Shown piece after piece: positions 1 through 50,864 of a DNA stretch of 64,000 nucleotides. Under the pieces are notes generated by a model. That model saw only the letters and a list, made by a program, of their open reading frames with translations, was not told the DNA's origin and ran no database searches. Every line of letters begins with the position of its first letter. The stretch's first letter is position 1. This DNA is from Candidatus Iainarchaeum sp. Lineage in GTDB: Archaea > Iainarchaeota > Iainarchaeia > Iainarchaeales > JAXPJC01. Where the stretch lies: contig JACPJC010000005.1 in the NCBI GenBank assembly GCA_016187745.1, positions 1 through 64,000 of the forward strand, given 5' to 3'. A program made the position numbers and the translations under genes.

Positions 1-316
1 AATGAACTATTCTTCTCAGCCCCTCGCGCTGCGTTTTGCTTTCATGCCTTATTTTTTCAATCTTTTTAGAATCCACATCTATATCATACACTTTTCTGCC
101 GATATCCGCAATCAAATCTCTAAAAAACCTGCCGGCAAGATCCTTGCTTATTATCCCTTGATTAACCTTACTGCTAAGCGTTTGTTCAAGAGAGCGCATC
201 AGGGGATAGCGCCTGATGTCATTCATCAAAGGCATTACAGTATGCCTTGTTTCCCTGGTGTTCATATGCCAGTTAAAAAGACTTGGCCTCAATACAATCG
301 ATTTTTTTCCGGGCAT
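1..316 (-). CDS. Hypothetical orphan protein, runs off the window edge (MPGKKSIVLRPSLFNWHMNTRE...)
   Basis: Manual translation of the minus strand: ATG at 316, open to base 1, co-directional with upstream genes. The + strand ORF 2..322 looks like a shadow. Confidence 0.6.
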   Translation of the reverse strand, partial: MPGKKSIVLRPSLFNWHMNTRETRHTVMPLMNDIRRYPLMRSLEQTLSSKVNQGIISKDLAGRFFRDLIADIGRKVYDIDVDSKKIEKIRHESKTQREGLRRIVH

Positions 317-352
317 ATTTAATTTCCCCGCTCCGCATTTATATTCCTATCC

Positions 353-1210
353 CTAGAATATGCCAAACCCTATGAACAAATCCGGCAGCGCAATTATTAC
401 AATTACCGCGGCAAAAACAAAAGGCGCGAATTTCGGCAAATTCCTGTAAACCGGCAGCTTTGCAATTTTCAGCTTTTTGAGCTTTTCAATCTCCTTTTTC
501 TCGAAAACCCGCTTTCCCCTGAGGTTAAGCGCCCTGCCGAGCCTTTCTTTTTGCTCATTTGACAAAAAATCCCAGGCGACTATCTCATCCTCCTCGAATT
601 TGCCTATTGGAATTTCCTTCAGGAAAAACTCCTTCCTTATGCCCTTCTCAAACGCGATGAAAAGCAGCGCGCAAATAACAACAACCCCAAGCACCGCAAC
701 GAACTGCATCTGCAAAAATTTCAACTGGAACAAAAGCGCGAAATAAAGCGCAAAGAACACTGCAAAAAGCGAGGCGTTGAATATTCCCTGTTTATTAAGC
801 GCAAAATCAATTCCCCTCGCGAAATATTTCGGAACGTAATAGATTGAGAGCGCCGCAATCGCGATTATTGCAGAAACAAAAACAATCAGAAGGATGAAGG
901 GGTAATTGTGATTGGGCAGATAGGGCAGCAATAGCGAAATTCCCACAAACAGCTTCACATCCCCCCCTCCAAGTTTGCCGGTATAGTAAAGAAGATAGCA
1001 CACAGCAAAAACAGCAAGCGCAACCGCGAAGTAATTCATCATACCCGCGATGCCTGCAACAAAGCCGGCATAAACATTAAAAATTATGCCAAGCGCAATC
1101 ATCGGATATGTAAGCTTGTCATAAATCAGCCCTGTGCGCAGATCAGTATAAGAAGCGATTGCTGTTGAGAATAAAACAGCAACTTCGCGCAATAAAAGAA
1201 GGTAAGGCAC
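353..1210 (-). CDS. A24-family prepilin/prearchaellin peptidase
   Basis: SYTD and GGGDVKL aspartate motifs, multiple TM helices, C-terminal PKFAPF motif. Confidence 0.9.
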   Translation of the reverse strand: MPYLLLLREVAVLFSTAIASYTDLRTGLIYDKLTYPMIALGIIFNVYAGFVAGIAGMMNYFAVALAVFAVCYLLYYTGKLGGGDVKLFVGISLLLPYLPNHNYPFILLIVFVSAIIAIAALSIYYVPKYFARGIDFALNKQGIFNASLFAVFFALYFALLFQLKFLQMQFVAVLGVVVICALLFIAFEKGIRKEFFLKEIPIGKFEEDEIVAWDFLSNEQKERLGRALNLRGKRVFEKKEIEKLKKLKIAKLPVYRNLPKFAPFVFAAVIVIIALPDLFIGFGIF

Positions 1211-1669
1211 CTAATGTCTCCTTACATTATTTTTATTTATCATTAGTATCTGTTTGCTTCCAGGGAGTAAGACTTCTTTTGCTTTTTTTGCTATAGCGAC
1301 TTCTGTAAGATACAACCTCCTCTTTTTAGCGAAATTTACAAAAAATTTTTTCTTTTTAGGCAGAGCAATTGCGCGTACTACTGTATATCCCGGATTATCT
1401 GCCAATATTCCATCAATCATCTGCTGGCAGTGTGGCTTCCTAAATTCTAAGTTGAATGGAGAAACGTCTATAGCCTTTTTTCCTTTTAAATCTACAAATT
1501 TATAACATACAATGGCAATTGGTTTATTGTCTTTCAGCCTAACAACAAAACGATCGAAATTTTTTGGGTAAACTCCAGTTTTTCCGCTTTCTTCAAAAAA
1601 CATCTGCGAAACCAACAACTTGTGCGCAGGATTTGACCACTGTATTTTAATATCCTCATATTTGACCAT
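1211..1669 (-). CDS. Basic orphan protein, possibly degenerate GNAT fold
   Basis: Fills the gap between srp54 and the peptidase. FVVRLKDNKPIAIVCY resembles GNAT strands; Lys/Arg-rich C-terminus. Confidence 0.6.
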   Translation of the reverse strand: MVKYEDIKIQWSNPAHKLLVSQMFFEESGKTGVYPKNFDRFVVRLKDNKPIAIVCYKFVDLKGKKAIDVSPFNLEFRKPHCQQMIDGILADNPGYTVVRAIALPKKKKFFVNFAKKRRLYLTEVAIAKKAKEVLLPGSKQILMINKNNVRRH

Positions 1670-1676
1670 TTTTGCA

Positions 1677-3038
1677 TCACCTTATCCTGAATTTCTTCTT
1701 TTTCATTGCAAGCTTTCCGAACAGCTTCTGCATTTTCCCTTTCTGAAGGTCTTCCATACTCTTTATTTCCCCCATGCCCCTGAACTGCTTGAACATCTCC
1801 CTCATGCGCCTGTAATTTTTGAGCAAGTCCCTCACATCCTCCTCCTTCTTTCCCGAGCCCCTTGCAATCCTCAGTATCCTGCTCCTGTCAACAATCTCAG
1901 GATTGCGCTTTTCCTGCCCCGTCATGGAATCCATAATTATTTTGAAATTCTCAAGCTTCTGCTCCGAAGTTTCCAGCATGTCCTTCGGAATCTGCATCCC
2001 CACCCCCAGCATGTCCATTACCTTCCCCAGGGGGCCCATCTTCTTCATCGCCTTCAGCTGCGCATAAAATGTCTCAAGATTGAATTCCTTCTGCATCAAT
2101 TCCTCAGGGCTTATTTCCTCTTCAGAGGAAATTTCCTCTGCTTTCTCAAGCAGCGCCTGCAGGTCCCCATAGCCCATTATCCTTGATAAGTAGCGCGTTG
2201 CATCAAACTCCTCAAAATCATCTGTTTTTTCCCCTGTGCCAATGAAATAAACATTTGAGTCTGTCGCCCTGCACGCAGCTAATGCCCCCCCGCCCTTTGC
2301 GCTCCCATCCATTCTCGTAATTATTATTCCATTAACCCCAACCGCATCATGGAATGCCTTAGCCTGCTTTCCCGCGATCTGCCCCGTATCTGCCCCCAAA
2401 ACAAGCCAGGTCTGGTCAGGCTTCAGAATTGCCGCAACCTCCTTTATTTCCTTTACCAATTCAGAATCCAGTGCGCTCCTTCCCGCGGAATCAACAATTA
2501 TTGCGTCGCATTTTTCCTTTTCCAATTCCTTAAGCCCCTGCCTCACAACCGCTGCAGCGTTTTTTTCCTTCGGATTCCCGTAAAAAGGAATTTTGACCTT
2601 TCCGCTCAGCTGCTGCAATTGCTCAAATGCGGCAGGCCTTGCAGTGTCCGCGCAGATTGCCCCGGTTTTCAGGCCGCGCTTTGAGTAGTATTTTGCAATC
2701 TTGGCCGTAGCAGTCGTTTTTCCATGGCCGAACGTTCCTACAAGGAGAATCCTTTTCGGCTTCTGCGGAATTTCCGCTTTCGCCCCCCCGAGGGCTTCGG
2801 CAAGCAGGTCATAGGTAATTTTTATTATGTGCTGCCTCCTGTCCAATCCTGAAGGCAGTTCCTTAAATGCCTCGGATTCAATTTTTTTGCTCAACTCAAG
2901 GACCAGCTGCACTTCCACATCCCCAGCAATAAGCGCGCGCTGCAAATCCTTTATAACCTCCCCAATCAGCTCCTTGTCTATGAAAGTGGATTTGCGCAGC
3001 CTCTCAAGCGCACCCCGGAGTTTTTCCCCTAAGCCCAT
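1677..3038 (-). CDS. srp54: Signal recognition particle protein SRP54
   Basis: GxxGxGKTT, DTARPAA, DSAGR, GSAKGG motifs and Met-rich M domain (SRILRIARGSG). Start trimmed to MGLGEKL. Confidence 0.97.
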   Translation of the reverse strand: MGLGEKLRGALERLRKSTFIDKELIGEVIKDLQRALIAGDVEVQLVLELSKKIESEAFKELPSGLDRRQHIIKITYDLLAEALGGAKAEIPQKPKRILLVGTFGHGKTTATAKIAKYYSKRGLKTGAICADTARPAAFEQLQQLSGKVKIPFYGNPKEKNAAAVVRQGLKELEKEKCDAIIVDSAGRSALDSELVKEIKEVAAILKPDQTWLVLGADTGQIAGKQAKAFHDAVGVNGIIITRMDGSAKGGGALAACRATDSNVYFIGTGEKTDDFEEFDATRYLSRIMGYGDLQALLEKAEEISSEEEISPEELMQKEFNLETFYAQLKAMKKMGPLGKVMDMLGVGMQIPKDMLETSEQKLENFKIIMDSMTGQEKRNPEIVDRSRILRIARGSGKKEEDVRDLLKNYRRMREMFKQFRGMGEIKSMEDLQKGKMQKLFGKLAMKKKKFRIR

Positions 3039-3163
3039 ATTCCCAAGAAGAATTAAGCACAAAAATAGTTATAAAACATGCCTTATTTTGGAAAAGTCAC
3101 AAATTAATCGTGCAACAATAATTGTACAGAAAGCCTTAAATACTTCCTTTGCAGAAGTAAATC

Positions 3164-3261
3164 AGAGGCGGGTTAATTAGCGTTAGACTGATAGGCTAAT
3201 ATACTCGGGAGCAAAGCACACTCTGCTAAGAGAGTTTTTATTTTGGCTCCCTTCCGCCTCT
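3164..3261 (+). ncRNA. Candidate ~98-nt structured non-coding RNA (three-way junction)
   Basis: Stems AGAGGCGG/CCGCCTCT, ATTAGC/GCTAAT, GGGAGC/GCTCCC and CTCT/AGAG. TTAAATA box at 3136-3142 upstream and T-rich tract downstream. Confidence 0.55.
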
Positions 3262-3313
3262 TTTCCTATTTTTTCTGATTGTTTTATTAACTTCTTCCGG
3301 CAAAAATATAGAT

Positions 3314-4150
3314 ATGCGATTAAGAAAGCCTCTTAAATTAAAAATTCCTAATGAGAGAGTGATATTATCAAGCCGCGGGGCCTGGCGTGTAAGTGATTAC
3401 CACTACAAATATCAAAATACAAACCCGAGAGACCCGAGTTTGCTTAGAAAGCTTGGAATTGCAAAAAGGGACAAAGTGCTTGTTTTTGCAGGATATTTCG
3501 GTCGATGGGCAAAGGCTCTTGCAAATTGCGGGGCGGTTGTGCATTATACAGATATTTCTCAAGGATTTGTAACATATGCTAAAAAAAAGTTTGGGCACAA
3601 TCAGCAATTTTTGAGAGATAAAAATATAGCAAGCTTCAGGGCGAGAAATGCCTTGCTCATTCCCCAGATTAAGAACAAGTATGATTGGAGTTTCTCATTT
3701 GAGCCAATACCTCTGCTCAACATCATATTGCCTTTCACATTGATGAGATCTTTGTTAAACAAAAAAGGGGCGATTGTTGTTTCTTATACCGCAACCAAAA
3801 TCTTTTCTGAAGAAATCAAAAAAATTGCCAAGATTTATAATGCAAAAAGCAGAACTAAGGAAATTTACATTAAATGTTTCAGGTGGCAGGATAAGTCAGT
3901 AAGAAACAGGCTGCATGAGATAAGTATCCTTATAACGAACCCTGCTGCCCAAAAAATGGTTGAAAATGATCTTGCTGTGCTTAGGGCGGCCAGAAGTAAA
4001 GAAAACGTTTCGCTTGAAGAGCTGGCAGAAGACGGGCGCATCAAACAAGCAAAGCTCGGCATTGAGCAAATAAAACAGAGTATAAAAAGACTGAGTGCCA
4101 TTTCACGAGATTTATCTGCAGCATACTCAATTAAGTCAAATATTGCATAA
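3314..4150 (+). CDS. Class I SAM-dependent methyltransferase-like orphan with basic N-terminus
   Basis: VLVFAGYFG (motif I-like), YTDIS, YDWSFS. Confidence 0.65.
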   Translation: MRLRKPLKLKIPNERVILSSRGAWRVSDYHYKYQNTNPRDPSLLRKLGIAKRDKVLVFAGYFGRWAKALANCGAVVHYTDISQGFVTYAKKKFGHNQQFLRDKNIASFRARNALLIPQIKNKYDWSFSFEPIPLLNIILPFTLMRSLLNKKGAIVVSYTATKIFSEEIKKIAKIYNAKSRTKEIYIKCFRWQDKSVRNRLHEISILITNPAAQKMVENDLAVLRAARSKENVSLEELAEDGRIKQAKLGIEQIKQSIKRLSAISRDLSAAYSIKSNIA

Positions 4151-4160
4151 TATTGAGAAT

Positions 4161-6004: not shown

Positions 6005-6006
6005 TT

Positions 6007-6896: not shown

Positions 6897-7313
6897 TTAG
6901 CCCTTTTTGATTGCCGCCTTCTCTGCAGCGGATTCCATCAGCCTTTTTTCCTCTACTTTCTTCTTTGCCTCTTCCTCTGCCTTGATTTCTTCCGGAGTTT
7001 TGGGCTTTTCCCTGCGCTTTTTCTCCTCGGGCTTTTTCTCAGCCTTCTCCAGTTCCTTGCTGCCCTCCATGTGCACAAAGATTTTATTTTCCTTCCTGCG
7101 CAGAACCACGCTCAGCTTCCTGCTTGGGGAGTCCCCGCCCTTGTATACTGCCTCATTAACGCTGTTCCCGATTACAACATTATCTGCTTTAACACGGCAG
7201 TGCTTGTCAACAAATTCCTTAACTATCCTTATTGCCTTTTTCAGGCGCCTTGGCTTCGGCTGGTTGAAGCATTCGCGCAAATTAATCAGATATTCGGCTT
7301 CGTTCCCCTTCAT
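6897..7313 (-). CDS. rpl31e: 50S ribosomal protein L31e with charged C-terminal extension
   Basis: YLINLR...KKAIRIVKEFVDKH...VNEAVY; synteny. Confidence 0.9.
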   Translation of the reverse strand: MKGNEAEYLINLRECFNQPKPRRLKKAIRIVKEFVDKHCRVKADNVVIGNSVNEAVYKGGDSPSRKLSVVLRRKENKIFVHMEGSKELEKAEKKPEEKKRREKPKTPEEIKAEEEAKKKVEEKRLMESAAEKAAIKKG

Positions 7314-7322: not shown

Positions 7323-7565
7323 CTATTTTATTCTCCTAATAACCCTTGGCATTCTCCTCGGGGCCTTTTGCTCTTTGTACATTTGTTCAAAAAAACCAAT
7401 GGCCGCCTTTGATTTGTTTGGAATTGGCTTATTGAGCTTCTTTGAAAGCAGTCCGATTCTTTTAATTATGCTCTTCTGCGTATTTAATGGCTCAACCATA
7501 AATCTTGCAGTATTTTTAATTTGCTCACAAAGTGCCCCAAATTCCCTGCTTGGATTGCCTTCCAT
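7323..7565 (-). CDS. Basic orphan inserted between rpl39e and rpl31e
   Basis: 80-aa ORF exactly filling the gap; C-terminus RRMPRVIRRIK. Confidence 0.6.
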   Translation of the reverse strand: MEGNPSREFGALCEQIKNTARFMVEPLNTQKSIIKRIGLLSKKLNKPIPNKSKAAIGFFEQMYKEQKAPRRMPRVIRRIK

Positions 7566-8991: not shown

Positions 8992-9225
8992 CTAATGCTT
9001 TGATTTCTTTTTCTTCCATCCATAAAGATACTCATCCACTCTTTGGCTTGCATCTTCATTTCCTTTGCCCCAATCAAAAGGCTTTAAATCGAAAAAGCTG
9101 CGTTTTTTATCTTGCTTATTTGAGCCATATGCAACTTTATCAATTTCTGCAGTAGCATTAGTTTTTCCAATTCCAAACAATCTTGGCTTCAAATCAAGGA
9201 AGCTTCTTTTCTTCTGTTTTTTCAT
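8992..9225 (-). CDS. Small protein of two tandem antitoxin-like C-terminal motifs
   Basis: KKRSFLDLKP...NATAEIDKVAYG and KKRSFFDLKP...DASQRVDEYLYG. Confidence 0.6.
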   Translation of the reverse strand: MKKQKKRSFLDLKPRLFGIGKTNATAEIDKVAYGSNKQDKKRSFFDLKPFDWGKGNEDASQRVDEYLYGWKKKKSKH

Positions 9226-9339: not shown

Positions 9340-9383
9340 TTTCAGGCCTTTTTAAATGCTTTCGGGACCATTCCGCCGGTGAA
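9340..9383 (-). repeat. Repeat family C (promoter-bearing): TTCACCGGCGGAATGGTCCCGAAAGCATTTAAAAAGGCCTGAAA
   Basis: Near-identical to 33478-33521 and related to 32693-32726. Confidence 0.8.
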
Positions 9384-10291: not shown

Positions 10292-10764
10292 AAGTCCTTC
10301 CGGTATATTTTTCCCGCAAGATAGTTCTCAATAACCTTCCTGCTAGGCTTGTACATGTTTTTCGGCAGTTCATCCAGCCCAAACCATTTCCATTCTGTAA
10401 TTTCATCCGGCTCCATTACCTGCGCCTCCCCCCCAAAATCCTCGCACAAAAAGCCAATGGTGATGAAATGCGCATCCTCAACCATTTCCTGCGTTATGCT
10501 TATCAATTTCAAATCCTTCACTTCAATCCCTGTTTCCTCCTTAACCTCATTCGCAGCGCGCTCCTCCAGAAACTCATGGAAGTGCAGCTTTCCCCCGGGC
10601 ATTGTCCATGTTCCTTCCCCGTGAAGCGCGGAATCCGCCTTCTGCGCATCAGAGTGCCTCAGCCCAAGCAGCACTTTCCCCGAGCGCAGCAGCATTACCC
10701 CTACCCCAACGCCGACTTTTGGCAATGGCTTTTCTTTATTCTCATGCGTTAGCTCTGGTGCCAT
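10288..10764 (-). CDS. NUDIX hydrolase (MutT/NUDT15-like)
   Basis: VGVGV, WTMPGG...EVKEETG, EPDEITEWKWF. Confidence 0.9.
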   Translation of the reverse strand: MAPELTHENKEKPLPKVGVGVGVMLLRSGKVLLGLRHSDAQKADSALHGEGTWTMPGGKLHFHEFLEERAANEVKEETGIEVKDLKLISITQEMVEDAHFITIGFLCEDFGGEAQVMEPDEITEWKWFGLDELPKNMYKPSRKVIENYLAGKIYRKDL

Positions 10765-11262
10765 CTAAATTCCTCTTTTAATCTTCAGAAATCTATTGGG
10801 TGCAGGCCTTTTTATAGGTTTTCTCCGCGCGGACTTTTGCAATCCGGAAAAAAGAGATTTGATGCCCGGACCAACATACACGCTATATGGGCGGTAATAT
10901 TTAAAGTTGTTTAGCGCAGCCATTACTTTTTCAAACGAATACTTTTTTACTGACATAAGATAGACCCCTGCAAATATATTGCTTGCATCCAAGCCTGCCA
11001 AACAAGTTATTGCAAACTTTCCCCTAATTCCTTTTGCAATTTTCAAAAAGTTATACGCTGTTTTGACGCCATATATGTCATTGTTTACAGCAGGTATCTG
11101 AATGAGTTTTATACCCGTGCCAGAAAACCTTTTTCTATCAGTTAAGTCAACTGGTGCTATGGTAAGCACAGTCTTTATATTCCGTTCTTTAAAAAACTCA
11201 GGGTTGTCTATATGCGCCCCGACAAAAACATTCGTGCCGGGGATTCTATCAACATCAAGCAT
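10765..11262 (-). CDS. Dual-specificity phosphatase-like orphan lacking the P-loop Arg
   Basis: IPGTNVFVG, IKTVLT, and ITCLAGLDAS versus consensus HCxAGxxRS. Confidence 0.7.
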   Translation of the reverse strand: MLDVDRIPGTNVFVGAHIDNPEFFKERNIKTVLTIAPVDLTDRKRFSGTGIKLIQIPAVNNDIYGVKTAYNFLKIAKGIRGKFAITCLAGLDASNIFAGVYLMSVKKYSFEKVMAALNNFKYYRPYSVYVGPGIKSLFSGLQKSARRKPIKRPAPNRFLKIKRGI

Positions 11263-12490: not shown

Positions 12491-13147
12491 ATGCCAGGAA
12501 AAATAATTGCAATTGAGGGCGCTGACGCTTCAGGCAAATCAACGCAGTCAAAAATCCTTTCAGCGCGCCTGAAGAGGATTGGAAAAAATGCAGCAGTGAT
12601 TTCCTTCCCGCGCCACAATGAGTTTTTCGGCTCGCTTGTTGAAAGGCATCTGCGCGGGAAATTCGGCAATCCGCACGAACTTCCAGCGGAATTCTGCGCA
12701 CTGCTCTATTCCGTTGACCGCTACAATATGCTGAATGAAATAAAATCTGCGCTGAAGGAAGGCAAAATCCTCATAATGGACCGCTACATACAGTCAAACT
12801 TCGCCTTCCAGACAGCAAAATTCACAAATCCTGCGGAGCAGGACTCCTTCCTACAGTGGATGCAGATTGTGGAAAGCAGGATGCCGAAAGCCGATGCTGT
12901 AATATTCCTTGAAATGCCGGCTGAATTTTCCCAGAGGCTCCTGAAAAGGGAAAAAAAGAAAGCGGATTTGCATGAATCGAACCTAGCGTACCAGAAGCGC
13001 GTACTTGCAATTTATGAAAGGCTGGCGCGCTCCGGGAACTGGCTGCAGATAAAATGCGCGCTCAGGCAGCAGAATGGCAGATGGAAACTAAAATCAAGGA
13101 AGCAGGTTGCAGAGGAAATCTGGAACGGGATAAGGAAGAAAATTTGA
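12491..13147 (+). CDS. tmk: Thymidylate kinase
   Basis: IEGADASGKSTQ, LLYSVDR, MDRY, DLHE. Confidence 0.95.
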   Translation: MPGKIIAIEGADASGKSTQSKILSARLKRIGKNAAVISFPRHNEFFGSLVERHLRGKFGNPHELPAEFCALLYSVDRYNMLNEIKSALKEGKILIMDRYIQSNFAFQTAKFTNPAEQDSFLQWMQIVESRMPKADAVIFLEMPAEFSQRLLKREKKKADLHESNLAYQKRVLAIYERLARSGNWLQIKCALRQQNGRWKLKSRKQVAEEIWNGIRKKI

Positions 13148-13879
13148 CTATTTGACAGACGGCCTTCCGCTTGGCAATCTAAGTTTTCTATTTATTGCTT
13201 TTGAAACCCCATTTTGTGAAGATGTCTTAACTTGCTTGACTTCAACGCCTTCCTTTGCAAGCCTGTTAACAACTTCTGCCAGGATTCTTTTTGCTGTTGT
13301 TGTCTTATCTACCCTGAAAGTCCTTGCAATCCAACTTAAAGAATAAATCTGACGCGGGTATCTCCTTATGTGTGCCTCCAGAGCAGCACGAGCCCCTTCA
13401 AGCCTCAATTTTTCAAGCTTGCTTTTTGAGGGTCTTATTTTGTGTTTATCAATAACAATTCTTTCCACGGTTTGACGCGATACTCCAAATTTTTTTGCGA
13501 TTTCAGTTGGCGTTAGGCTAAGGTTGTTCCTGGCAAAAGACAAAATCCTTTTTTGTGCGTCCTCACTGATAGCTGCAAAGCGCCCATATGGCATTCTGGA
13601 TTTTTTTTTATCATTTGCAAGGGTTCTTTTGAATGAAAAGTCCCTCTGTTTTTCAAATTTTTCCAACAAACGCTCTGCAGAGTGCCATCCTATATTAAGG
13701 TCTTTCGCCATTTTGTTTGCAGAAACAGCAAGCCCCTTTTCAGCGGCATTCATTACATAATTAAGGGCTCTGGCGTGGGCATCCATCCAGCGGCTTGCTG
13801 CAATTTCCCTTCGTTTCTCTATCATTGGGCGCATACCTTTAGGATAGCTCCCAATTGGTTTCGGCTTTCTTGTGCGCAT
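13148..13879 (-). CDS. Basic multi-HTH orphan protein
   Basis: Three HTH-like segments (SANKMAKDLNIGWHSAERLL, TPTEIAKKFGVSRQTVERI, SLSWIARTFRVD). Confidence 0.7.
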   Translation of the reverse strand: MRTRKPKPIGSYPKGMRPMIEKRREIAASRWMDAHARALNYVMNAAEKGLAVSANKMAKDLNIGWHSAERLLEKFEKQRDFSFKRTLANDKKKSRMPYGRFAAISEDAQKRILSFARNNLSLTPTEIAKKFGVSRQTVERIVIDKHKIRPSKSKLEKLRLEGARAALEAHIRRYPRQIYSLSWIARTFRVDKTTTAKRILAEVVNRLAKEGVEVKQVKTSSQNGVSKAINRKLRLPSGRPSVK

Positions 13880-13882
13880 AAA

Positions 13883-14025
13883 TGCGACCGCCGGGATTCG
13901 GACCCGGGTCCTAACCTATTTGCTATGAAGATTATTTTATCTTTGGATAACCCTTAGACTTTCTCTTTTTCTAAAAGAGAAAGGCTTGGTGGCAAGGTCA
14001 GATCCTACCACTAGACTACAGTCGC
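13883..14025 (-). tRNA. tRNA-Gly(GCC) with 72-nt intron at 37/38 (intron 13918-13989)
   Basis: Acceptor GCGACTG/CGGTCGC-A, anticodon loop TT-GCC-A; BHB central helix TTGC/GCAA, bulge AT|A. T loop reads TCCGAAT. Confidence 0.92.
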
Positions 14026-14054
14026 TTATAGTAGAATTAAATATGGGAGCCTTT

Positions 14055-15767
14055 TTATCTTTTGCGCAAAAGCAGGATTGCAAGCGCAATGGCAATTATT
14101 GCAAGAACAGCGATTGCCGCAATAAGCACCAGATCGATATTCCCCGGAACTGCGGGAATGCCCCCCGCGCCTTCCCCCTGCCCCGCGCCTGCTGCATTTC
14201 CCTCTCCCCCTGTTCCTTCAGGCTTTTCTGTCCGCTTCTCCTCAAGGATTTCAATGTTCTGCAGATGCGCAATCCCCGGCCCGGAAATATCCACTTTCAT
14301 CGCCCCGTAATTCCAGTCCGCAAAAGAGTATGAAAGCGTTTTCTGCGTGTTTGAAGGAATCTGCTCAGCCGCGCTTCCTGAAATTCCAACACCGCTGATG
14401 TTTATGTCAGCGATTCCGTCCTGCATTCCGGAATTCTTCAGGATTACCTTTATTGTGAGCTTCCCATCCGAAATTTCAGGCACTATTGCGACCAGTTTTA
14501 TGTTTGCAGAATCTGAAACTTCCCCCCCGGCAGCATAAACTGAAACATTCCCCTCAATCTCCTGGTCAAAGCCCCTTATCGCATATCCGTAAATGTAATT
14601 CAATCCCGCAGTATCTGGCGCATCTGCATTCCAGGAAAGCGTTTTCCGCTCCGCTGGATTCAGCAGAACAAGCCTTTCCGCGCTTTCATAAACAAACTGC
14701 TCATGCAGCCTCATTTCAATCGGCGCAATGAATTTTCCATCAGTAAGGTTTGCAACTTCAAGATTGAAATCAAAGTTCTGCCGGCCCTTCAAATCCCCCG
14801 GGAACATCACATTCAGGCCCGTGTATTTCGAGAATTTGCTGAAATCATTCACAATCACATCCTCGCCCCTGTCAATTTTGACGCTTATGCCCTGCGTTGT
14901 CGTTATGGAATCAACGGCCTGGCTCTGGTCAAGCAGCTTTGCAAGCACCAAATGCGTCCCATCAACAAATCCCGCCTCAAGGTAAGTGGCGTCAAGCGCA
15001 ATCCACCCCGCTCCGGGAACAAAGAATTCCAGCCATGCGTGCGTATCCCATTTCTTTCCGCTGTAAACATATCCTACGATGTATCTTGTGGGAATCCCTC
15101 GCGCGCGGAGCAGCGCAGCTGTCAGGTTTGAGAACTCATCGCATGTTCCCTTCCTTACATCCAGGACTTCCTTTGCCGAGAGGACAGTCGTGAAATAATC
15201 CAAATCATAGGTTATGTATCCGTGCGCAAATTCCGCGGCCTTTATCGCATTTTCAAGAACTGAATTTGAGTTCAGGGTAGAAAACGCAAGGCTCCTTATC
15301 CCTGAATCATTTGACTGTATGTATGTGCTCTCCTGCAGGAATTGGGCTTCCTCATCTATCGGAGCGCCCAAATCATAGTCCTTCAGGTCAAAAACCTTGG
15401 AATTCGTCCTTATGCGCGCATTTATCGTGTATTTGAAATCCGCGCTTTCAATATTGCCTATTTTGAATATCGCATATTTATTCCCAAGCCCATCAGTTTC
15501 ATGCGTTGCATTTATCGCCCTGCTCCCAATCTGCAGCGCCTCACTAATCCCAAGCACCTCCTGGGCTTCATTGCTGGAAAACGTCTGCAGCTTTATCTCA
15601 ATCGTATCCCCCGCGCCTATGCTTCCGGAAATTGCCCCATCCCCAACAATAATTACATTAACATCCGCGCTCTGCACCCTTACAGGATTCCCCATCTCAA
15701 GCGCATATGCGTTTGAAAGAATAATTGCGGAAATAGCCAAAATAAAAAAATTTCTGATTGCGCTCAT
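14055..15767 (-). CDS. Secreted, membrane-anchored transglutaminase-like protein
   Basis: Signal peptide, GTCDEFS...HAW...LDAT Cys-His-Asp triad, Ig-like domains, C-terminal TM followed by RKR. Confidence 0.9.
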   Translation of the reverse strand: MSAIRNFFILAISAIILSNAYALEMGNPVRVQSADVNVIIVGDGAISGSIGAGDTIEIKLQTFSSNEAQEVLGISEALQIGSRAINATHETDGLGNKYAIFKIGNIESADFKYTINARIRTNSKVFDLKDYDLGAPIDEEAQFLQESTYIQSNDSGIRSLAFSTLNSNSVLENAIKAAEFAHGYITYDLDYFTTVLSAKEVLDVRKGTCDEFSNLTAALLRARGIPTRYIVGYVYSGKKWDTHAWLEFFVPGAGWIALDATYLEAGFVDGTHLVLAKLLDQSQAVDSITTTQGISVKIDRGEDVIVNDFSKFSKYTGLNVMFPGDLKGRQNFDFNLEVANLTDGKFIAPIEMRLHEQFVYESAERLVLLNPAERKTLSWNADAPDTAGLNYIYGYAIRGFDQEIEGNVSVYAAGGEVSDSANIKLVAIVPEISDGKLTIKVILKNSGMQDGIADINISGVGISGSAAEQIPSNTQKTLSYSFADWNYGAMKVDISGPGIAHLQNIEILEEKRTEKPEGTGGEGNAAGAGQGEGAGGIPAVPGNIDLVLIAAIAVLAIIAIALAILLLRKR

Positions 15768-16300
15768 TTTCCCGCCTTTTTCCTCTCAATTGCTATCCCA
15801 TTTTTTGCAATTTTTTCAGCATCCCTGACTTTAGAGTTCAGAATTTCCACTTCCTTATCACTCAACTCAATTTTATCCATGAATCTTAATAACCTTTCCC
15901 GCGAATGGGAGGCTTCCCTTTCGGCTATTTCAAGCTTCTTTGCAAAAAAGTCCATATTCTCAAAATCCCTGACCATGTTGATCGGGGAGTTATGTATTTC
16001 AAGCATACGAAATTTATTCTCAAGATAGATTTTGTTTGCCAGAAGGCGCTCCAATTCCCTCGTTTGTTTTGGATTGAGCAATTTGAAATTGCTTCTCCTG
16101 ACGGCCTCATTTGCAATGACCTTTGCAAAAACCCCATATCTAAATACATTGATGCCAAAATCAGCCTTTGTGGATTTTTCCCCCCTATAAATTGCGGGAA
16201 TTCTCCTTGCAGTTTCTCTCCATATCCTTATTGCAGCACCAGGAGTAAGTTTTCCGCGCCTCAAGCGGTAAAACGGGCGCTTTGAAGATTTTGGAGCCAT
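15764..16300 (-). CDS. Basic orphan protein downstream of tRNA-Val (MAPKSSKRPFYRLRR...)
   Basis: Start trimmed to ATG 16300 because the longer ORF overlaps the tRNA; stop overlaps the next start (ATGA). Confidence 0.65.
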   Translation of the reverse strand: MAPKSSKRPFYRLRRGKLTPGAAIRIWRETARRIPAIYRGEKSTKADFGINVFRYGVFAKVIANEAVRRSNFKLLNPKQTRELERLLANKIYLENKFRMLEIHNSPINMVRDFENMDFFAKKLEIAEREASHSRERLLRFMDKIELSDKEVEILNSKVRDAEKIAKNGIAIERKKAGK

Positions 16301-16316
16301 TGTTTCTTCCTGGAAT

Positions 16317-16467
16317 TGGGCCCGGGCGGGATCGAACCGCCGACCTTCGGCTTGTTTACAATTTCCCAAGGGATTAATTTTCTTTTGAACCCCAGGGCCT
16401 TTTCTTTTTTATAAAAAGAAAAGGGGCTGCTGTAAAGCCGACGTCATAGCCGCTAGACGACGAGCCC
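16317..16467 (-). tRNA. tRNA-Val(TAC) with 78-nt intron at 37/38 (intron 16353-16430)
   Basis: Acceptor GGGCTCG/CGGGCCC-A, anticodon stem TCGGC/GCCGA; BHB helix TTTA/TAAA, bulge CA|A. Confidence 0.93.
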
Positions 16468-19230: not shown

Positions 19231-22200
19231 ATGCAGGACAGAATGCAGCACCGGGAAGCGCATAATTTTCGCAGGGTTTCAGCAATTTTATTACTCATAA
19301 TTATTGCCCTTTCCTTCGTCTCTGCGCAGGCCTGCCCAAAAACCTGGACCTCGCAGCCTGACTGGGATTCAGGCGTGAAGGAGTATGTTGATACATCAAT
19401 CGTGCCGGGCTCTCTCATATTGACAAAGCTCAATTCCTATGTGCAGTGGAAGTTTGATGAGGGTTCAGGCAGCATAACGCGCAGCTCCGGGAACCTGGAT
19501 GGAAACGGCTATATTTACGGCGACACAAAATGGACAGGAGGCATAAGCAACACGGCGCTTGATTTTTCAGGAGCATACGGCACTACATTGTACAATTCAA
19601 CATATGTCCCGACATACACAGTCAGCGGCGGTGTAAGTACAAGTCCCTTCGTGCAGCGCACAACCCCCGGCTCAGATTTTTCCATCAGCCTTTCCTACAA
19701 TCCCAAAGCGCTCCTGAGCACCAATAATAGTGTATGGTACAAATATGGGGACAATATATTCAACTATGGCAGTGCGCATTTGGCGAGCAGCAATTGGTGC
19801 TATGGGCGTTGGTGCGATCCGAGCAACTGGTATAATGTTCCCCCGGGAAGCTGGAGAATTTCCCTTCAGAGCTCAGGGTGCGGGGAGGCGGATGGACCGT
19901 ATTGCTCCTACACAGGATACAGGTCAAACATAGTTTTTTTTGAAATGCGCGATAAAAGTTATAACAGGCGCTTTGTTGCAAGCCAGAGCAATGCATTCCC
20001 CCTGGCAAACACATGGTATGGCATAACCGCAGGCCTAAGCGGCAACTGCATTTACATCGGAGCAGGCGGGCAAACAAATACCGTGTGCGGGGTTGATTTG
20101 TCAGGCGTTCAACACAAAGGTGGCCTGGTTATAGGCGGCAAGAACTGGAGCAATTCTCATAGCTATATTGAACCATTCATTGGCATTATTGATGAAGTGC
20201 AGATCAGCTCAGGCGGCTATAATGCGCAGGGCAAGTGGAGGGCTGATTTTGATGCAGGGGCAGAGCACATTTTCCAAAGCCTCTTATGGCATGCCTCAGT
20301 TCCGCAAAATACTGGCCTGAGTTTCAAATTCAAAACTGCAAATACTCCTGCAGATTTGGAAACAGCGCCCTGGTATAATGGCCCATTTTCAGCAATGGCC
20401 CAAACAGGCAGATATGCAAGGGTTGAAGGAGTCTTAAGCGGAGATATGTATGCTACGCCTGTGCTCAATGACCTTACATTGGGCTGCACGGCAGTCGGCG
20501 GAGGAGGAGGCGGCGGCGGGGGCGGAAATTGCGGAAACGGAACAATAAACTCCGGGGAATCCTGCGACGGAGGCAACTTGGGGGGAAAGACCTGCTCGGA
20601 TTTTGACAGTTTCACCGGGGGAACATTAACCTGCCAAAATTGCGCGCTCAACACATCAAACTGCACAGGCCCGGCGCCCTACTGCGGAAACGGAACAATA
20701 GATTCCGGGGAATCCTGCGACGGAAGCAACCTGGGGGGCAGGGCATGCACGGATTTTGACTCTTTTACCGGAGGCTCATTGGGCTGCGCATCATGCAGTT
20801 TTGACACAGGCCAGTGCACAGGCGGCACTCCGGGGGGCTGCGGAAACGGGACAATCAATACCGGAGAAACCTGCGACGGGAGCAACCTTGGGGGAAAAAC
20901 CTGCTCCGATATTGATGATTTTGTTTTTGGCAGCCTATCCTGCAATTCAAACTGCTCGCTTAACACTTCAGGCTGCATAAAATCAGAAAACTGCGGCAAT
21001 GGCACCATTAATTCAGGGGAAACCTGCGACGGGAGCAACCTTGGGGGAAAGACCTGCTCGGATTTTGGCTTTGCAGGCGGAACACTGAGCTGCTCAGCAA
21101 GCTGCGCAATAGATACCAGCAACTGCACAAGCTGCGGCAATAATGCAATAGATGCAGGGGAGGAATGCGACGGGAGCAACCTTGGGGGAAAGCAATGCAC
21201 TGATTTTGACGATTATGCCTCAGGAATATTGGGATGCAGCTCATGCGCATTTGACACAGGCAACTGCACAACCTGCGGCAACAACAGGATCAATCCTGGG
21301 GAGCAATGCGACGGAACAGACCTGGGGGGAAAAACCTGCGCTGATTACGGCTTCACCGGCGGAACGCTGGGCTGCGCATCAGGCTGTTCAGCAGACACAA
21401 GCAACTGCACAACAAACCTGAGCCCTGTTGCAATAATTTCCCCAACAAACGCAGAGGGATTTGCGGGCAATGCAATATCGTTTGACGGCTCCGCAAGCTA
21501 TGACCCTGATGGCACAATAACAGGCTACGCATGGAATTTTGGCAACGGGCAGGCAGGAAGCGGCGCAGCTGCGCAGGGCACATATTCATCTGCAGGCGTT
21601 TATACTGTAAGCCTTACAGTAACTGACAATCTTTCAGCAACCGACGGCGCAAGCGCTACCGCAACTGTTATTGCCCCTTCAACAGGAACCTGCCCCCCGG
21701 GAAAAACCTGGACAACAAAAGAGGAATTTGATTCAGGCAGCATTAACCAGGTTGATACTGCAAGCTCGCCAGGGGCTGTAAAGATAGCAAGTTCGCAGAC
21801 CTCAGGGGCGCTCAACCTCTATTTTGATTCAGGGCAGCAGAGCAGCCATAATGCGCTTTCATTCAGTGCTGAAAAGCCTTCAGGCACAGGAGTGAAAGTA
21901 AGGCTAAGGGCGGCAAACACTCTTGCAGGGCTCGCAACAGCAACATGGACGCAATATTATACGGCAGGCACTGCAAGCCTTTCAAACCAGATTGGGAGAT
22001 ATGCTGAATTAGAGGCGCTGCTTGAAACATCGGATGCAAGCATTACGCCAAAACTTAATGATTTAACACTGGGCTGCTCAGGCCTGCCTTCAAGTTCCAT
22101 AGACCTGATTGTGGAATCGGCTGCATTATCCCCCGGAAGTTCGGTTGCGCAGGGAACGGCAGTAAATATAACCGCAACAGTAAAGAACAATTCTTCCACA

Positions 22201-26892: not shown

Positions 26893-27117
26893 TCAATAAC
26901 CTTCCAATAATGCCTTTCTCCTTTCTTCAATCCTCTTTTCTATTAATGCTTCAGCCTCTTTTAATGTTTTCCCCTGCCTTCTGTATTTTTCAAGAAGCCC
27001 TGCCCTAATCTTTTCAATTACCCGCAAATAAGAAATAGCGCGCTTTGAAATCTTGCCGGTGTCCCTTCTTTTGTTTCTCCCAAGGCTTCTCAGGTGCGTA
27101 TCAAAAGTTTTTGCCAT
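26893..27117 (-). CDS. Small basic orphan protein
   Basis: 74-aa Arg/Lys-rich ORF tightly packed upstream of pth2. Confidence 0.55.
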   Translation of the reverse strand: MAKTFDTHLRSLGRNKRRDTGKISKRAISYLRVIEKIRAGLLEKYRRQGKTLKEAEALIEKRIEERRKALLEGY

Positions 27118-27604: not shown

Positions 27605-27654
27605 AGCCCCTTTTCTTTTTGAAAAAGAAAAGGCCCTTGGGTTCAAAAGAAAAA
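27605..27654 (+). repeat. Repeat family B copy (AGCCCCTTTTCTTTTTGAAAAAGAAAAGGCCCTTGGGTTCAAAAGAAAAA)
   Basis: Almost identical to the tRNA-Val intron core (16428-16377, minus strand). Confidence 0.85.
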
Positions 27655-27710
27655 CTGCCTTTTCCTATTGAAAATGGAAAGCCCGGGAAAAAGAAAAAAG
27701 GTTTCAGAAA

Positions 27711-28861: not shown

Positions 28862-29131
28862 ATGAAGGGACAGGTTTCAGACAGGATTTCAAAAATGCGC
28901 GAACTGCTTGAAAAGGCAAAAACAGCCACTTCAGCAAAAGATGCAAAAACACTTGCACGGGCCATCCGGGCGCACAAGGCCTATATGCAGGGGCTTTCGG
29001 CAAAATACGGGAACCTCCAACTGAATTACACACACCTTGACAATGCGCTGGCAAAATTGAATTTAATAATGCAACAAGCCAATAAAAACAAACCGCTGGT
29101 TTCCGCCCGCAGGAAACCAATAATAAAATAG
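28862..29131 (+). CDS. Basic orphan inserted in the nurA-herA operon
   Basis: 89 aa, ends SARRKPIIK. Confidence 0.6.
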   Translation: MKGQVSDRISKMRELLEKAKTATSAKDAKTLARAIRAHKAYMQGLSAKYGNLQLNYTHLDNALAKLNLIMQQANKNKPLVSARRKPIIK

Positions 29132-31029: not shown

Positions 31030-31574
31030 CTACTTATTTGTCTTGCCATAAGCAAGTTGAAGAATGAGTTTTAATTTAGCTAGAGACCCAGACATATTTG
31101 CAGCCACTGACCCAACAAATCGTTTATGGTCTTCAAGGTCTAGCGCTCCGGGGTACTTGTGTTGAGATAATTCCCAAAAGAAGTAGCAATAAAATCGAAA
31201 TCCACAGCAGATTCTCTAAGGAGTATTATGTCTTCTAACAAACTATTGGCATTTTTTGCAGTTATTCCTAAATTTTTCAAATATTCTGGCGCACCTTTTT
31301 TTAATATTAATTTACTTTTTCCCTTATCATAAGATAGTAACATTTTTCTATCCAATAATTGTTTTAGCCGTTTTAGCTGCTCCTTTTCTTTAGGTGGTAT
31401 ATCATATCTCATCTCATCCAGACGCCGCCGTAAAAGCCAGTTCTCAACAAAAGTTCTCTGTTTTTGGGTTCCAAACTCCATTCTTGCCTCATTGCCCCAC
31501 GTACCTTTAATTTTTCTATACAATGATTCATTCCCGCCGGGTCTTTTATTTCTTACCTGCACTTTTTCAAGCAT
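31030..31574 (-). pseudogene. Orphan ORF (31140-31574), probably frameshifted, with an alternative-frame continuation to 31030
   Basis: A shifted frame reads ...QHKYPGALDLEDHKRFVGSVAANMSGSLAKLKLILQLAYGKTNK* and fills the gap to herA. Confidence 0.45.
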
Positions 31575-32632: not shown

Positions 32633-32692
32633 GGTAAAAACAACGCGCTCCCTTGGTTAAAAAGTATTTTGGTTCAAAATTGCCAAGCAACT

Positions 32693-32726
32693 TTCACCGG
32701 CGGAATGCCCCCGAAAGCGTTTATAA
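32693..32726 (+). promoter_or_regulatory. Repeat family C with BRE (CGAAA) and TATA (TTTATAA) upstream of the PIN gene
   Basis: TTCACCGGCGGAATGCCCCCGAAAGCGTTTATAA, ending 22 nt before ATG 32749. Confidence 0.75.
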
Positions 32727-33477: not shown

Positions 33478-33521
33478 TTCACCGGCGGAATGGTCCCGAA
33501 AGTGTTTATAAAGGCCTGAAA
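33478..33521 (+). promoter_or_regulatory. Repeat family C with BRE/TATA upstream of the PolB-like gene
   Basis: TTCACCGGCGGAATGGTCCCGAAAGTGTTTATAAAGGCCTGAAA; ATG at 33534. Confidence 0.78.
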
Positions 33522-38315: not shown

Positions 38316-38387
38316 GGACCCATCGGCTAATGGACAGGCCAGACGGCTTCGGACCGTCCAATGGGGGTTCGATTCCCTCTGGGTCCA
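38316..38387 (+). tRNA. tRNA-Arg(TCG), intron-less
   Basis: GGACCCA/TGGGTCC acceptor, GACGG-CT-TCG-GA-CCGTC anticodon arm, GGGGG-TTCGATT-CCCTC T arm. Confidence 0.95.
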
Positions 38388-38396: not shown

Positions 38397-38448
38397 CCCT
38401 TTTCTTTTAGGAAAAGAAAAGGTCTAGGTTTTACCCCAAAAGAAAAAT
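38397..38448 (+). repeat. Repeat family B copy immediately downstream of tRNA-Arg
   Basis: CCCTTTTCTTTTAGGAAAAGAAAAGGTCTAGGTTTTACCCCAAAAGAAAAAT. Confidence 0.8.
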
Positions 38449-41776: not shown

Positions 41777-42177
41777 TCACACAAGCCTTAAAATGAAAGT
41801 CTTTGTTCCAACATAATTCTTGGGATATATTCTCACAGGCTTCCATTCTTTTGCCTTTGCCATGACTCTCAGCATCCCGTGATTTTCAGAGCTTACATCA
41901 ATAAACAATTTCCTATTTTGTTTTTCTTTGCATAATCTGCAATGTCCTTAAGAAATTCTCCAGCCAGATCATGCCCCCTGCGCTTCGGATGCACATACAC
42001 CCTGGATATGTGCAAGCCGTATTTGCCTTCCTTGTGGAACAAAGCGAATGAGCCTCCTATCTTGCGTGGCACATTAATTAATGCTGGTTCCGGGAGAGCG
42101 TTTGCATGCACAGGCTTTCCTGAATGTGCAATAATCACATTTCCATATCTTGCATGATTTATTTTCACGCGCCTCAT
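41777..42177 (-). pseudogene. GNAT acetyltransferase-like orphan with a single frameshift near 41912
   Basis: ISRVYVHPKRRGHDLA motif A; a shifted frame continues KLFIDVSSENHGMLRV...FILRLV* up to the thpR start. Confidence 0.7.
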
Positions 42178-46281: not shown

Positions 46282-46310
46282 GTTTATTAAGCATTTAGGA
46301 AACTCCCGAT

Positions 46311-46670: not shown

Positions 46671-46704
46671 GAAATGCCACAAGTATTTTTTTATTTTATG
46701 TCCA

Positions 46705-47265
46705 TCAGGCTAAATTTCTCCTGAGCAGTATCATTACAGGAAGGTCATTTTTATGTTGTTTTCTGAGCATTTGCCTTATTTCTGGCAGCGCTGGCAATTC
46801 ATCACGCAGCCCAATGCCAAGAATTCCTTTTAATTCTATTTCACAATGCTTGTCAACCTTCCATCCAAGCCCAAGAAGTGTATTAATAACAGATTTTTTT
46901 GTAGTATTTACAATAGCTTCTTCACCGCCCTTTTCCTTTATTATAAATTCCATTAATCTAAAGCACAACCTTCCGAGATTCAAACCTCGAGATACAGGCA
47001 TTATTTCCCTGTGGTTAATATTCCATTCTTTATTATCAAGAGTTATTGCATTAAATACTGCAATTTCTTTTTTTGTCTTATCACTCAATCTCAAGCCAAT
47101 GGCTCTATCAGACCCGCTACGAATATCATTTGCAAAAATTCTTTCATCCCCCATGATTATATATTCACCTCTCCGCATTTCTCTAAAACTCGGGCTTCCT
47201 TTAGCGCGCCTGACCTTCCATTCCTTTGGAATGTTTTTGTAAAATCTTTCATATGGCATATTCAC
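46705..47265 (-). CDS. GNAT-like basic orphan, translationally coupled to pelota
   Basis: INHREIMPVSRGLNLGR motif A, LGW; ATGA overlap. Confidence 0.65.
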   Translation of the reverse strand: MNMPYERFYKNIPKEWKVRRAKGSPSFREMRRGEYIIMGDERIFANDIRSGSDRAIGLRLSDKTKKEIAVFNAITLDNKEWNINHREIMPVSRGLNLGRLCFRLMEFIIKEKGGEEAIVNTTKKSVINTLLGLGWKVDKHCEIELKGILGIGLRDELPALPEIRQMLRKQHKNDLPVMILLRRNLA

Positions 47266-48305: not shown

Positions 48306-48357
48306 AGATATGTTATGCAGATACTGCTTTTTAACTATTTTTACCCCCCTTCAATAT

Positions 48358-50151: not shown

Positions 50152-50160
50152 ATGAAAAAT

Positions 50161-50526
50161 TTAGCCGCGGTATTGTTGTGATATTTGTTTGGCGTCTAGG
50201 TAGATTTTATTTCTGAATCCTACTAATTCTCCCAGCCTTGTTAATTGTTCCTCATCCAGGGGTTTATGCTCCTTTAAAATTGCTTTAAGAAGAGGTATAC
50301 CGTGAGCCTTTCTTTCAGCCCCCGCATACATTTGGCTATTTTTCCCGACTAACTCCCCAAAACGTTGCAATTCCGGAGGTTCTAGGTATCCACGCCCATC
50401 TTGAACCGCAAATAAGGCATTAAGGTTTATTTGCTCTTCTCTAGTTCTTACAACGGCTTTTGGTACTTCATGGCTTCGCTTTTTCCACTTCAGCAGCCAC
50501 CCCCTAACGGCCCCTATATTTGCCAT
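50161..50526 (-). CDS. Orphan protein with an internal two-fold repeat
   Basis: LEPPELQRFGELVGKNSQMY and LDEEQLTRLGELVGFRNKIY. Confidence 0.6.
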   Translation of the reverse strand: MANIGAVRGWLLKWKKRSHEVPKAVVRTREEQINLNALFAVQDGRGYLEPPELQRFGELVGKNSQMYAGAERKAHGIPLLKAILKEHKPLDEEQLTRLGELVGFRNKIYLDAKQISQQYRG

Positions 50527-50564
50527 ATAATAACCTCATTTCCGAGCAAGTTTTAAACCAAACG

Positions 50565-50651
50565 AATTTCACTGGTTTTAACCGGTGGCGTGAGTGTAAT
50601 TCCCAACTATCAAAAACCATATGCCGCTGACTTCAGTCAGTGGTGATTGAC
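50565..50651. mobile_element. Non-autonomous IS200/IS605-type miniature element (two terminal hairpins)
   Basis: CACTGGTT-TT-AACCGGTG hairpin and GCCGCTGACT-TC-AGTCAGTGGT followed by GATTGAC, the hairpin-plus-TTGAC end typical of this family. Confidence 0.6.
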
Positions 50652-50864
50652 TCATACAGGCCTGGGCCCGGATTTGCGGATTGTTCTTTGCATTTTTTTA
50701 TATTTTAGTGCTTTTATTAAAACATTTCTGTAGGCCCTACTTCCCCTTCCAAGCAAAGACCTAAGGTCCCTCCATTGCTCTTTTTCCAAATAACCTTGAA
50801 TTCTGAATGCCCTCAACAGCATATTGCGCAATAATTGTTGTTCTTTAGTCAGAGCCATCATCAT
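50652..50864 (-). CDS. Basic orphan sharing a motif with 50161-50526
   Basis: GYLEKEQWRDLRSLLGRGSRAY; ATGA overlap with the apgM stop. Confidence 0.6.
   Translation of the reverse strand: MMMALTKEQQLLRNMLLRAFRIQGYLEKEQWRDLRSLLGRGSRAYRNVLIKALKYKKMQRTIRKSGPRPV

Follow-up and report, generated by a model that had tools for sequence, protein, structure and literature searches.

Candidatus Iainarchaeum sp. is a DPANN archaeon whose genome (labelled G000 here) spans 0.96 Mb on 10 contigs, has a GC content of 45%, and is 91% complete. The window analysed here, meaning the whole stretch of DNA under study, is the first 64 kb of its 298-kb contig C1. It is collinear with related genomes of the same order (G015 contig C2, 570-615 kb; G016, 1033-1091 kb; G001, 1-60 kb). 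A sequence-only reading of this DNA listed 15 small open reading frames (ORFs) that lie between or inside housekeeping genes, and all of them are present in the sequence. The neighbours it named (L39e and L31e, NurA and HerA, SRP54, pelota, TYW3, and apgM) are likewise confirmed. These 15 ORFs, referred to below by their first coordinate, form the candidate set, which was chosen by eye and partly for basic character.

The genome was compared with 30 relatives, each from another family of the order (SRP54 identity 45-67%), and DNA was used from the two complete genomes of the order, G016 and G015, and from parts of seven others. For nine of the ORFs, distribution was also searched in 170 other genomes of the order, to which the fractions below refer. 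A gene is called conserved when it has a homologue in G015 and G016 and non-conserved when it has none at E<1e-5. The ORFs, together with one of the same class that the sequence-only reading did not list, are as follows.

2-316, minus strand: orphan of at least 105 amino acids (aa), cut by the contig end, between the genes for prepilin peptidase and RtcA (the latter on contig C7); no Pfam match
1211-1669, minus strand: 152-aa orphan between srp54 and peptidase A24; 0/170 genomes; ratio of non-synonymous to synonymous substitution rates (dN/dS) 0.098
3314-4150, plus strand: 278-aa protein of predicted class I S-adenosylmethionine (SAM) methyltransferase fold (AlphaFold2 and Foldseek) with a disordered basic N-terminus; patchy family
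7323-7565, minus strand: 80-aa basic orphan between L39e and L31e; carried by some relatives' contigs at ~85% identity, with one empty site
8992-9225, minus strand: the unlisted 77-aa basic ORF; GC content at third codon positions (GC3) 0.308, charge 0.143 per aa, no homologue in G015 or G016, no Pfam match
10765-11262, minus strand: 165-aa protein weakly like dual-specificity phosphatases (DSPc, 24 bits against a cut-off of 33.5); two weak matches in 170 genomes
13148-13879, minus strand: 243-aa, very basic (+36) helix-turn-helix (HTH) protein (MarR_2, E 2e-6); strict orphan
15764-16369, minus strand: 178-201-aa orphan overlapping the start of a transglutaminase-like gene; 0/170 genomes
24702-24929, plus strand: 75-aa basic ORF; weak coding score (0.038); 90% cluster of 2
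26893-27117, minus strand: 74-aa basic orphan overlapping the start of PTH2 by 4 nt; no Pfam match
28862-29131, plus strand: 89-aa basic orphan in the nurA-herA slot; no Pfam match
31140-31574, minus strand: 144-aa ORF downstream of PGI; coding score -0.05; 0/170 genomes; 90% cluster of 2
41777-42177, minus strand: GNAT-like 94-aa ORF (41893-42177) and an overlapping 43-aa ORF (41777-41908), between taw3 and ligT; 0/170 genomes
46705-47265, minus strand: 184-aa divergent acetyltransferase of predicted GNAT fold (structure model), after pelota; 4/170 genomes
50161-50864, minus strand: two adjacent weak paralogues (121 aa and ~70 aa; pairwise E 3e-5) downstream of apgM; coding scores ~0; 50161 in 0/170 genomes

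The junctions that hold these ORFs are short in relatives. The gap between srp54 and the gene for peptidase A24 (the prepilin peptidase), which adjoins srp54 in 25 of 29 loci, measures 34-124 bp in five relatives, 283-322 bp in two, and ~1.8 kb in two more. Gaps of 9-48 bp separate ligT from taw3, and gaps of 15-51 bp separate a Holliday-junction-type endonuclease gene from pelota, each in three of three relatives. PTH2 lies 45 bp from the next gene in G001, four relatives have L39e directly next to L31e, and the nurA-herA slot varies in length (317, 859, and 2252 bp). The short gaps at five junctions (9-124 bp) indicate that ORFs 1211, 41893, 46705, 26893, and 7323 occupy DNA that is absent in relatives. 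Syntenic conservation, which the sequence-only reading had named as evidence that would speak against it, was looked for and is not seen for these ORFs.

Their distribution in the order is narrow or patchy, as expected of ORFans. ORF 3314 has homologues in 26 of the 170 genomes (15 of 69 other genera), at two places in five of them, and ORF 46705 in four. ORFs 13148 and 10765 match two genomes each, weakly and partially, and ORFs 1211, 15764, 31140, 41893, and 50161 match none. Six short ORFs searched against G015, G016, and the partial contigs returned nothing below E 0.02. In much larger collections, ORF 1211 finds two representatives among 1.84 billion proteins (87% and 28% identity), ORF 13148 finds only itself among 5.8 billion, and the only homologues of ORF 15764 are 88% and 84% identical. 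Members of two 90% clusters carry the label Candidatus Diapherotrites or Iainarchaeum in their sources. Cluster size is not discriminating, since 90% clusters hold 1-5 members for candidates and conserved neighbours alike. In a protein atlas, the nearest clusters to ORF 1211 are viral hypothetical and viral GNAT clusters (0.93-0.96), which serves as a lead only.

Most of the ORFs correspond to annotated proteins. Exact matches in a public protein collection were found for 13 sequences covering 13 of the 15 ORFs: all 10 of one batch, two of five candidate start variants of another, and 13148-13879. ORF 2-316, cut by the contig end, was left out of this look-up. The start variants 46705-47265, 50652-50864, and 50652-50936 had no exact match in the collection, which therefore yielded no annotated version of ORF 50652. 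Pfam gave no match for 11 of the 15 ORFs and weak matches for the other four (Methyltransf_25 at E 0.0056, DSPc below its cut-off, GNAT families at ~1e-3, and one HTH family barely above its cut-off). The ORFs were also considered as disguised RNA genes, but Rfam and ARAGORN detect only a tRNA-Arg (38316-38387), so none of them hides a known RNA gene. Packing is tight, with 0-4 bp gaps or overlaps, and several ORFs overlap a neighbour by 4 nt. Judged from the sequence, this arrangement fits co-transcription with the neighbouring genes.

No mobile element accompanies the insertions. As the sequence-only reading had stated, there is no transposase or integrase nearby; no such family occurs among the 72 window ORFs scanned. 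Target-site duplications were rejected as a mark of insertion, because the longest direct repeats flanking the inserts (0-9 nt) fall within the random distribution. The window does contain other repeats, and the flanking-repeat test found no link between its palindromic repeats and the ORF insertions. The palindrome CCCTTTTCTTTTTGAAAAAGAAAAGG lies in intergenic spacers at 13958-13983, 16399-16424, 27608-27633, 27657-27682, and 38397-38422 and is terminator-like. Relatives' contigs show short-sided joints between its copies at 13.9 kb and 16.4 kb; the joints 13918 to 16378 and 13990 to 16431 fall within these repeats, have sides of only 21-30 nt, and were judged unreliable. A 34-44-nt element containing TTTATAA occurs in three copies (9340-9383, 32686-32726, and 33478-33521) with 88-93% identity, one of them inverted. 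One copy sits just 5' of a 527-aa gene at 33534, and the element may be a shared promoter or operator.

Some neighbouring genes have features of their own. The SRP54 loci of two relatives (G019 contig C1, 20499-23657; G008 contig C6, 120442-123597) match in two pieces that are separated by ~1.8 kb and share a single open frame (1050-1107 aa), as would be expected if the GTPase domain contained an intein-like insert. L31e (6897-7313) carries a long Lys/Glu-rich C-terminal tail in the order; the protein measures 138 aa in this genome and 147-188 aa in four relatives. A probable surface protein of 1760 aa (19231-24513) combines CARDB and PKD domains with internal Cys-rich repeats, 141-153 nt in length. 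The 5' end of its gene has almost no cover by the contigs of close relatives described next.

Closer relatives, at ~85-91% nucleotide identity, are present in sequencing runs of other studies. Their contigs carry ORF 1211 (gapless over 752-1817), ORF 7323, and ORF 15764, the last covered at ~91% nucleotide identity. In one such contig, 28 nt separate 7313 from 7592, which represents an empty site for ORF 7323. Others skip ORF 10765 (10710 to 11260) or ORF 13148 (13137 to 13881); the latter path is seen in three of four runs. Cover of 3314-4150 is very low (bin 3336-4002), and no contig joins across it. Some ORFs are lacking or replaced in contigs of close relatives.

Replacement is visible at the contig end. 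The metagenome contig L180 aligns to window positions 333-3183 at 90.6% identity. Past the peptidase gene it has an 88-aa ORF that is basic, low in GC3, and without homologues in G000, G015, and G016, followed by RtcA, which in G000 sits at the start of contig C7. This ORF is unrelated to 2-316, so two genomes with ~90% identical flanks carry unrelated orphans in the same slot. The beginning of contig C7 (positions 1-490) is likewise AT-rich, and the window contig breaks within the same variable slot (1-333). Because L180 bridges the slot with other content, C1 and C7 are probably neighbours. The quick turnover proposed from sequence alone is thus borne out by empty sites at at least five junctions, by relatives' contigs that lack ORFs, and by a slot with unrelated orphans.

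L180 also shows how ORF 1211 evolves. The two copies differ by 14 synonymous and 6 non-synonymous changes (dN/dS 0.098), and the ORF is under purifying selection. It is less diverged than its surroundings. Synonymous divergence (dS) is 0.17 in ORF 1211 and 0.45-0.47 in srp54 and the peptidase gene (Fisher p 2e-4), and synonymous third positions differ at 14/141 sites versus 143/651 in the flanks (p 7e-4). Nucleotide identity is 95.6% in the ORF and 88.0% and 89.9% in the flanks, and the high-identity tract runs from ~1151 to 2050 (~900 bp). AT-rich codons were rejected as the cause of the low dS, as AT-ending and GC-ending codons in the flanks have diverged to a similar degree (21.6% vs 22.3%).

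The base composition of the candidates departs from that of the genome. The contrast was measured on 1134 ORFs called genome-wide by a simple home-made codon-score caller, which is imperfect, so some short ORFs are spurious. As the sequence-only reading had noted by eye, the candidates are AT-rich: their mean GC3 of 0.396 lies near the GC of intergenic DNA (0.374), whereas conserved genes average 0.528 and other non-conserved genes 0.474. The candidates carry a net charge of 0.121 per residue, versus 0.025 in conserved genes and 0.048 in other non-conserved genes; coding scores average 0.104 versus 0.289 in conserved genes; and Lys makes up 11.3% versus 8.2% in the comparison. Host-like codon usage, a second observation that the sequence-only reading said would tell against it, was not found, as codon usage is atypical. 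Part of the contrast in composition and charge stems from the selection of the set, in which basicity played a role. The direction of the shift is general: among genes of 60-300 aa in G000, G015, and G016, non-conserved genes have a GC3 ~0.05 lower and a higher charge (each p<1e-5). Lower GC3 and higher charge are thus common to the lineage-specific genes of all three genomes. Horizontally acquired ORFans are recognized by deviant composition and empty sites, and both are present here.

These data bear on a native origin, in which the ORFs arose de novo from non-coding spacer, or are old genes diverged past recognition, and were not imported. The closeness of their GC3 to the intergenic value, the low coding scores, and the lack of homologues anywhere searched for most of them agree with such an origin, which PMC13012023 keeps open for a minority of ORFans. 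However, five junctions measure only 9-124 bp in relatives, so that 250-560 bp of DNA is itself extra, two members come from patchy families that extend to other families of the order, and the low divergence of ORF 1211 relative to its flanks is not predicted by descent in situ. A native origin of the set therefore seems unlikely.

The two members with patchy families have predicted folds. ORF 46705 was modelled from a 6-sequence alignment with a mean predicted local distance difference test (pLDDT) score of 88.4 and adopts a GNAT fold. Foldseek returns GNATs with probability 1.00 (E 4e-6), and the 30 or more top matches listed are all GNAT or acetyltransferase chains or bear such a domain. 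The RG.N.G sequence of the acetyl-CoA-binding motif A is conserved in the six sequences, and no Pfam match is found at E<=0.01. A paralogue lies at 260169-260726 of contig C1 (41% identity), and homologues in four other genomes are basic (+13 to +18) with low GC3 in every host examined. The AlphaFold2 model of ORF 3314 (pLDDT 77.6) matches methyltransferases in Foldseek with probability 1.00 (E 1e-7) and has a helical C-terminal extension. Its F-A-G..G sequence (glycine-rich motif I) is invariant in seven sequences, with a Pfam score of 17.8 against a cut-off of 27. The homologues share a K/R-rich N-terminus (charge +12 to +33), which resembles an RNA- or DNA-binding tail. In five AT-rich genomes, the homologues have a GC content of 0.39-0.42, equal to that of their own surroundings. 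The window copy (0.386) matches this value, which fits import from an AT-richer relative.

Both proteins resemble GNATs and class I SAM methyltransferases in predicted fold and glycine-rich cofactor motifs. Unlike typical members, they score below the Pfam gathering threshold and form small, patchy, basic, AT-rich families. The sequence-only reading had seen modifier enzymes among the ORFs (up to three GNATs, a methyltransferase, and a phosphatase). The GNAT fold of 46705 and the methyltransferase fold of 3314 stand. In ORF 10765, the catalytic C-x5-R loop of phosphatases reads C-L-A-G-L-D-A and thus lacks the Arg. ORF 41893 aligns with no more than positions 48-93 of PF00583 (116 positions; 17.8 bits) and, with the 43-aa ORF overlapping its end in another frame, looks truncated. 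From its sequence, 41777-42177 is probably a frameshifted or decaying GNAT gene.

Such remnants raise the question of whether the set is largely non-functional, consisting of annotation artefacts or decaying pieces in AT-rich spacer. Coding scores near zero or below in ORFs 24702, 31140, 50161, and 50652, the truncated 41893 with an overlapping ORF behind it, and a GC3 near the intergenic value would agree with this. Yet lengths of 144-278 aa greatly exceed what chance would give at such composition, ORF 1211 is under purifying selection, two proteins give confident known folds, and ORF 15764 is kept at 88% aa identity in a relative. As an account of the whole set, loss of function is improbable.

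The same folds invite a reading as selfish or conflict genes, that is solitary toxins or defence or anti-defence proteins (a GNAT toxin, a modification methyltransferase, an HTH regulator) retained through addiction or through protection against viruses. GNAT, methyltransferase, and HTH proteins are common in such systems, and patchy distribution and fast turnover would suit them. PADLOC gives weak matches of ORF 3314 to a defence-system methyltransferase (E 3.8e-5) and of ORF 13148 to Csa3 (E 5.8e-5), but these cover generic domains only. The Pfam scan shows no antitoxin family or partner gene beside the GNATs, whose neighbours are housekeeping genes, and the ORFs are dispersed singly rather than in islands. 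This role has little probability.

The sequence-only reading had interpreted the ORFs as host-directed effectors, which would be exported through a contact-dependent machine that recognizes K/R/P-rich termini. Both ends are indeed basic in absolute terms: the first 25 aa carry a mean charge of +3.5 and the last 25 aa +4.2, compared with ~+1.6 and ~+1.7 in size-matched proteins. Positively charged C-termini can act as type IV secretion signals in Agrobacterium (PMC3297438). Quick turnover is also seen in effector sets, and the genome encodes three T2SSE-type (pilus-type) ATPases in addition to the prepilin peptidase in the window. The distinct terminal signal expected of a type IV effector set is, however, absent. 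The terminal charge equals what overall protein composition predicts, with an excess over own composition of 0.51 at the N-terminus (0.54 genome-wide) and 1.18 at the C-terminus (0.74 genome-wide). Per-protein shuffling gives p 0.17 (N) and 0.037 (C), and comparison with other non-conserved genes gives Mann-Whitney p 0.91 (N) and 0.26 (C). The charge is spread over the whole protein. Terminal charge was the third check named by the sequence-only reading, and its outcome goes against that reading.

A type IV secretion machine and export features were not found either. VirB4 (PF03135) and VirD4/TraG (PF02534) have no matches in the 91%-complete genome, whereas the positive controls matched in Caulobacter for VirB4 and in five genomes including Sulfolobus for VirD4/TraG. 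The T2SSE-type ATPases fit the prepilin peptidase and type IV pili. A 19-residue hydrophobic or signal-like segment, N-terminal or internal, is found in none of the 15 ORFs, versus 31% of all proteins. The basic N-terminus of the methyltransferase family is kept in many genomes of the order, the same composition occurs in lineage-specific genes generally, and the ORFs share no common motif. Thus, these ORFs resemble the Agrobacterium VirB/VirD4 effectors in having positively charged C-termini in absolute terms (PMC3297438), but differ in their archaeal host, the unmatched VirB4 and VirD4, and a charge that is not concentrated at the ends. Beyond turnover, the effector reading has no support and is highly improbable, and overall basic charge should not be taken for a secretion signal.

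The ORFs do not form a family either, although they had been described as one. A blastp search against the whole proteome links only 50161 and 50652, and 46705 has its single paralogue. A candidate shared motif, [LIVMF]..[LIVMF][LIVMF]G.....Y, was rejected because it occurs 22 times in the proteome versus 19.7 in shuffles and marks only the 50161/50652 pair. The described slotting one at a time is not special: ORFs of at least 60 aa with no homologue in G015 or G016 (E<1e-5) make up 365 of 1042 (35%), and they form 127 singleton runs, close to the 156 expected from random placement and if anything slightly more clustered. Local density is different. Low-GC3 basic ORFs were defined by a GC3 below the conserved mean minus 1.5 standard deviations and a net charge of more than 0.09 per residue. 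Of 44 such ORFs in the genome, 10 fall within the window, whereas the other 15 bins (up to 64 kb) hold 0-5 each (Poisson p 2e-4 to 9e-4). In G015 and G016, the syntenic stretches contain two and three of them.

Taken together, the ORFs are probably heterogeneous, lineage-restricted accessory genes (ORFans and two patchy enzyme families) that were gained horizontally, are exchanged quickly, and encode intracellular basic proteins. Extra DNA would be gained at gene junctions within a conserved string of information-processing genes. An AT-richer gene pool would supply the genes through horizontal transfer, and recombination in the conserved flanks could then spread or replace them among related populations, which would account for the lack of a visible integrase or target duplication. 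Expression would probably occur by read-through from the host operons. The products (a GNAT, a basic-tailed SAM methyltransferase, an HTH protein, and small K/R-rich proteins) are likely soluble and cytoplasmic in type, and their most likely role would be the binding or modification of nucleic acids or proteins in the cell.

Several points weigh against this interpretation. No donor was found: a viral origin was set aside after three pattern scans of viral contigs (with 1211, 46705, and the 3314-family alignment) gave no relative, and PHROGs and PADLOC return only generic HTH or methyltransferase-domain matches. Parsimony alone favours gain over repeated loss. Selection and recent exchange both rest on one gene, one relative, and 14 synonymous differences. 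The low coding scores of 24702, 31140, 50161, and 50652 and the truncation of 41893 mean that some ORFs may be decaying or non-functional. Arg is doubled (9.6% vs 4.7%), for which AT-richness does not account, and the interpretation does not account for the threefold to fourfold local excess in the window.

A more specific mechanism would be an integrase-free pool of single-gene cassettes that encodes basic proteins modifying nucleic acids or proteins, circulates among related DPANN populations, recombines across conserved operon flanks, prefers the translation and DNA-repair string, and tunes the information processing of the cell itself or of a partner cell. It would fit ORF 1211, with half the divergence of its flanks over a ~900-bp tract, the unrelated orphans in one slot, and the 10/44 excess. 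Even so, such a pool must be considered rather doubtful.

Among known systems, the preferred interpretation as horizontally gained accessory genes brings the ORFs close to bacterial ORFans. It is established that ORFans are short, AT-rich, and suspected to be foreign (PMC12315717; PMC13012023). The ORFs share with them (Daubin and Ochman, cited in PMC12315717; PMC13012023) a short length, higher AT content, atypical codons, restriction to a narrow clade, and, for the most part, no assigned function, and import is the favoured origin in both cases. They differ in their DPANN host of ~1 Mb, their position as single genes in tight housekeeping operons with no islands or prophages, their unusually basic products, and their local density.

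Phage morons, described by Hendrix and co-workers, are defined by their own promoter and terminator. The ORFs resemble them as single genes of deviant base composition between genes that are adjacent in relatives. Unlike morons, they lie in a cellular chromosome with housekeeping flanks, several overlap a neighbour by 4 nt, and they have no PHROG match beyond generic HTH.

DPANN genomes are tiny, and much of their gene content lacks an assigned function. Here the gain and exchange of genes in such genomes can be followed down to the base pair: lone AT-rich genes occupy housekeeping operons that are otherwise fixed, and at least one of them is under purifying selection and appears to have been exchanged recently between lineages. 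That gene provides a hint of recombination-borne exchange between lineages. The GNAT family and the basic-tailed methyltransferase family also offer two small, testable enzyme families for studies of lineage-specific modification.

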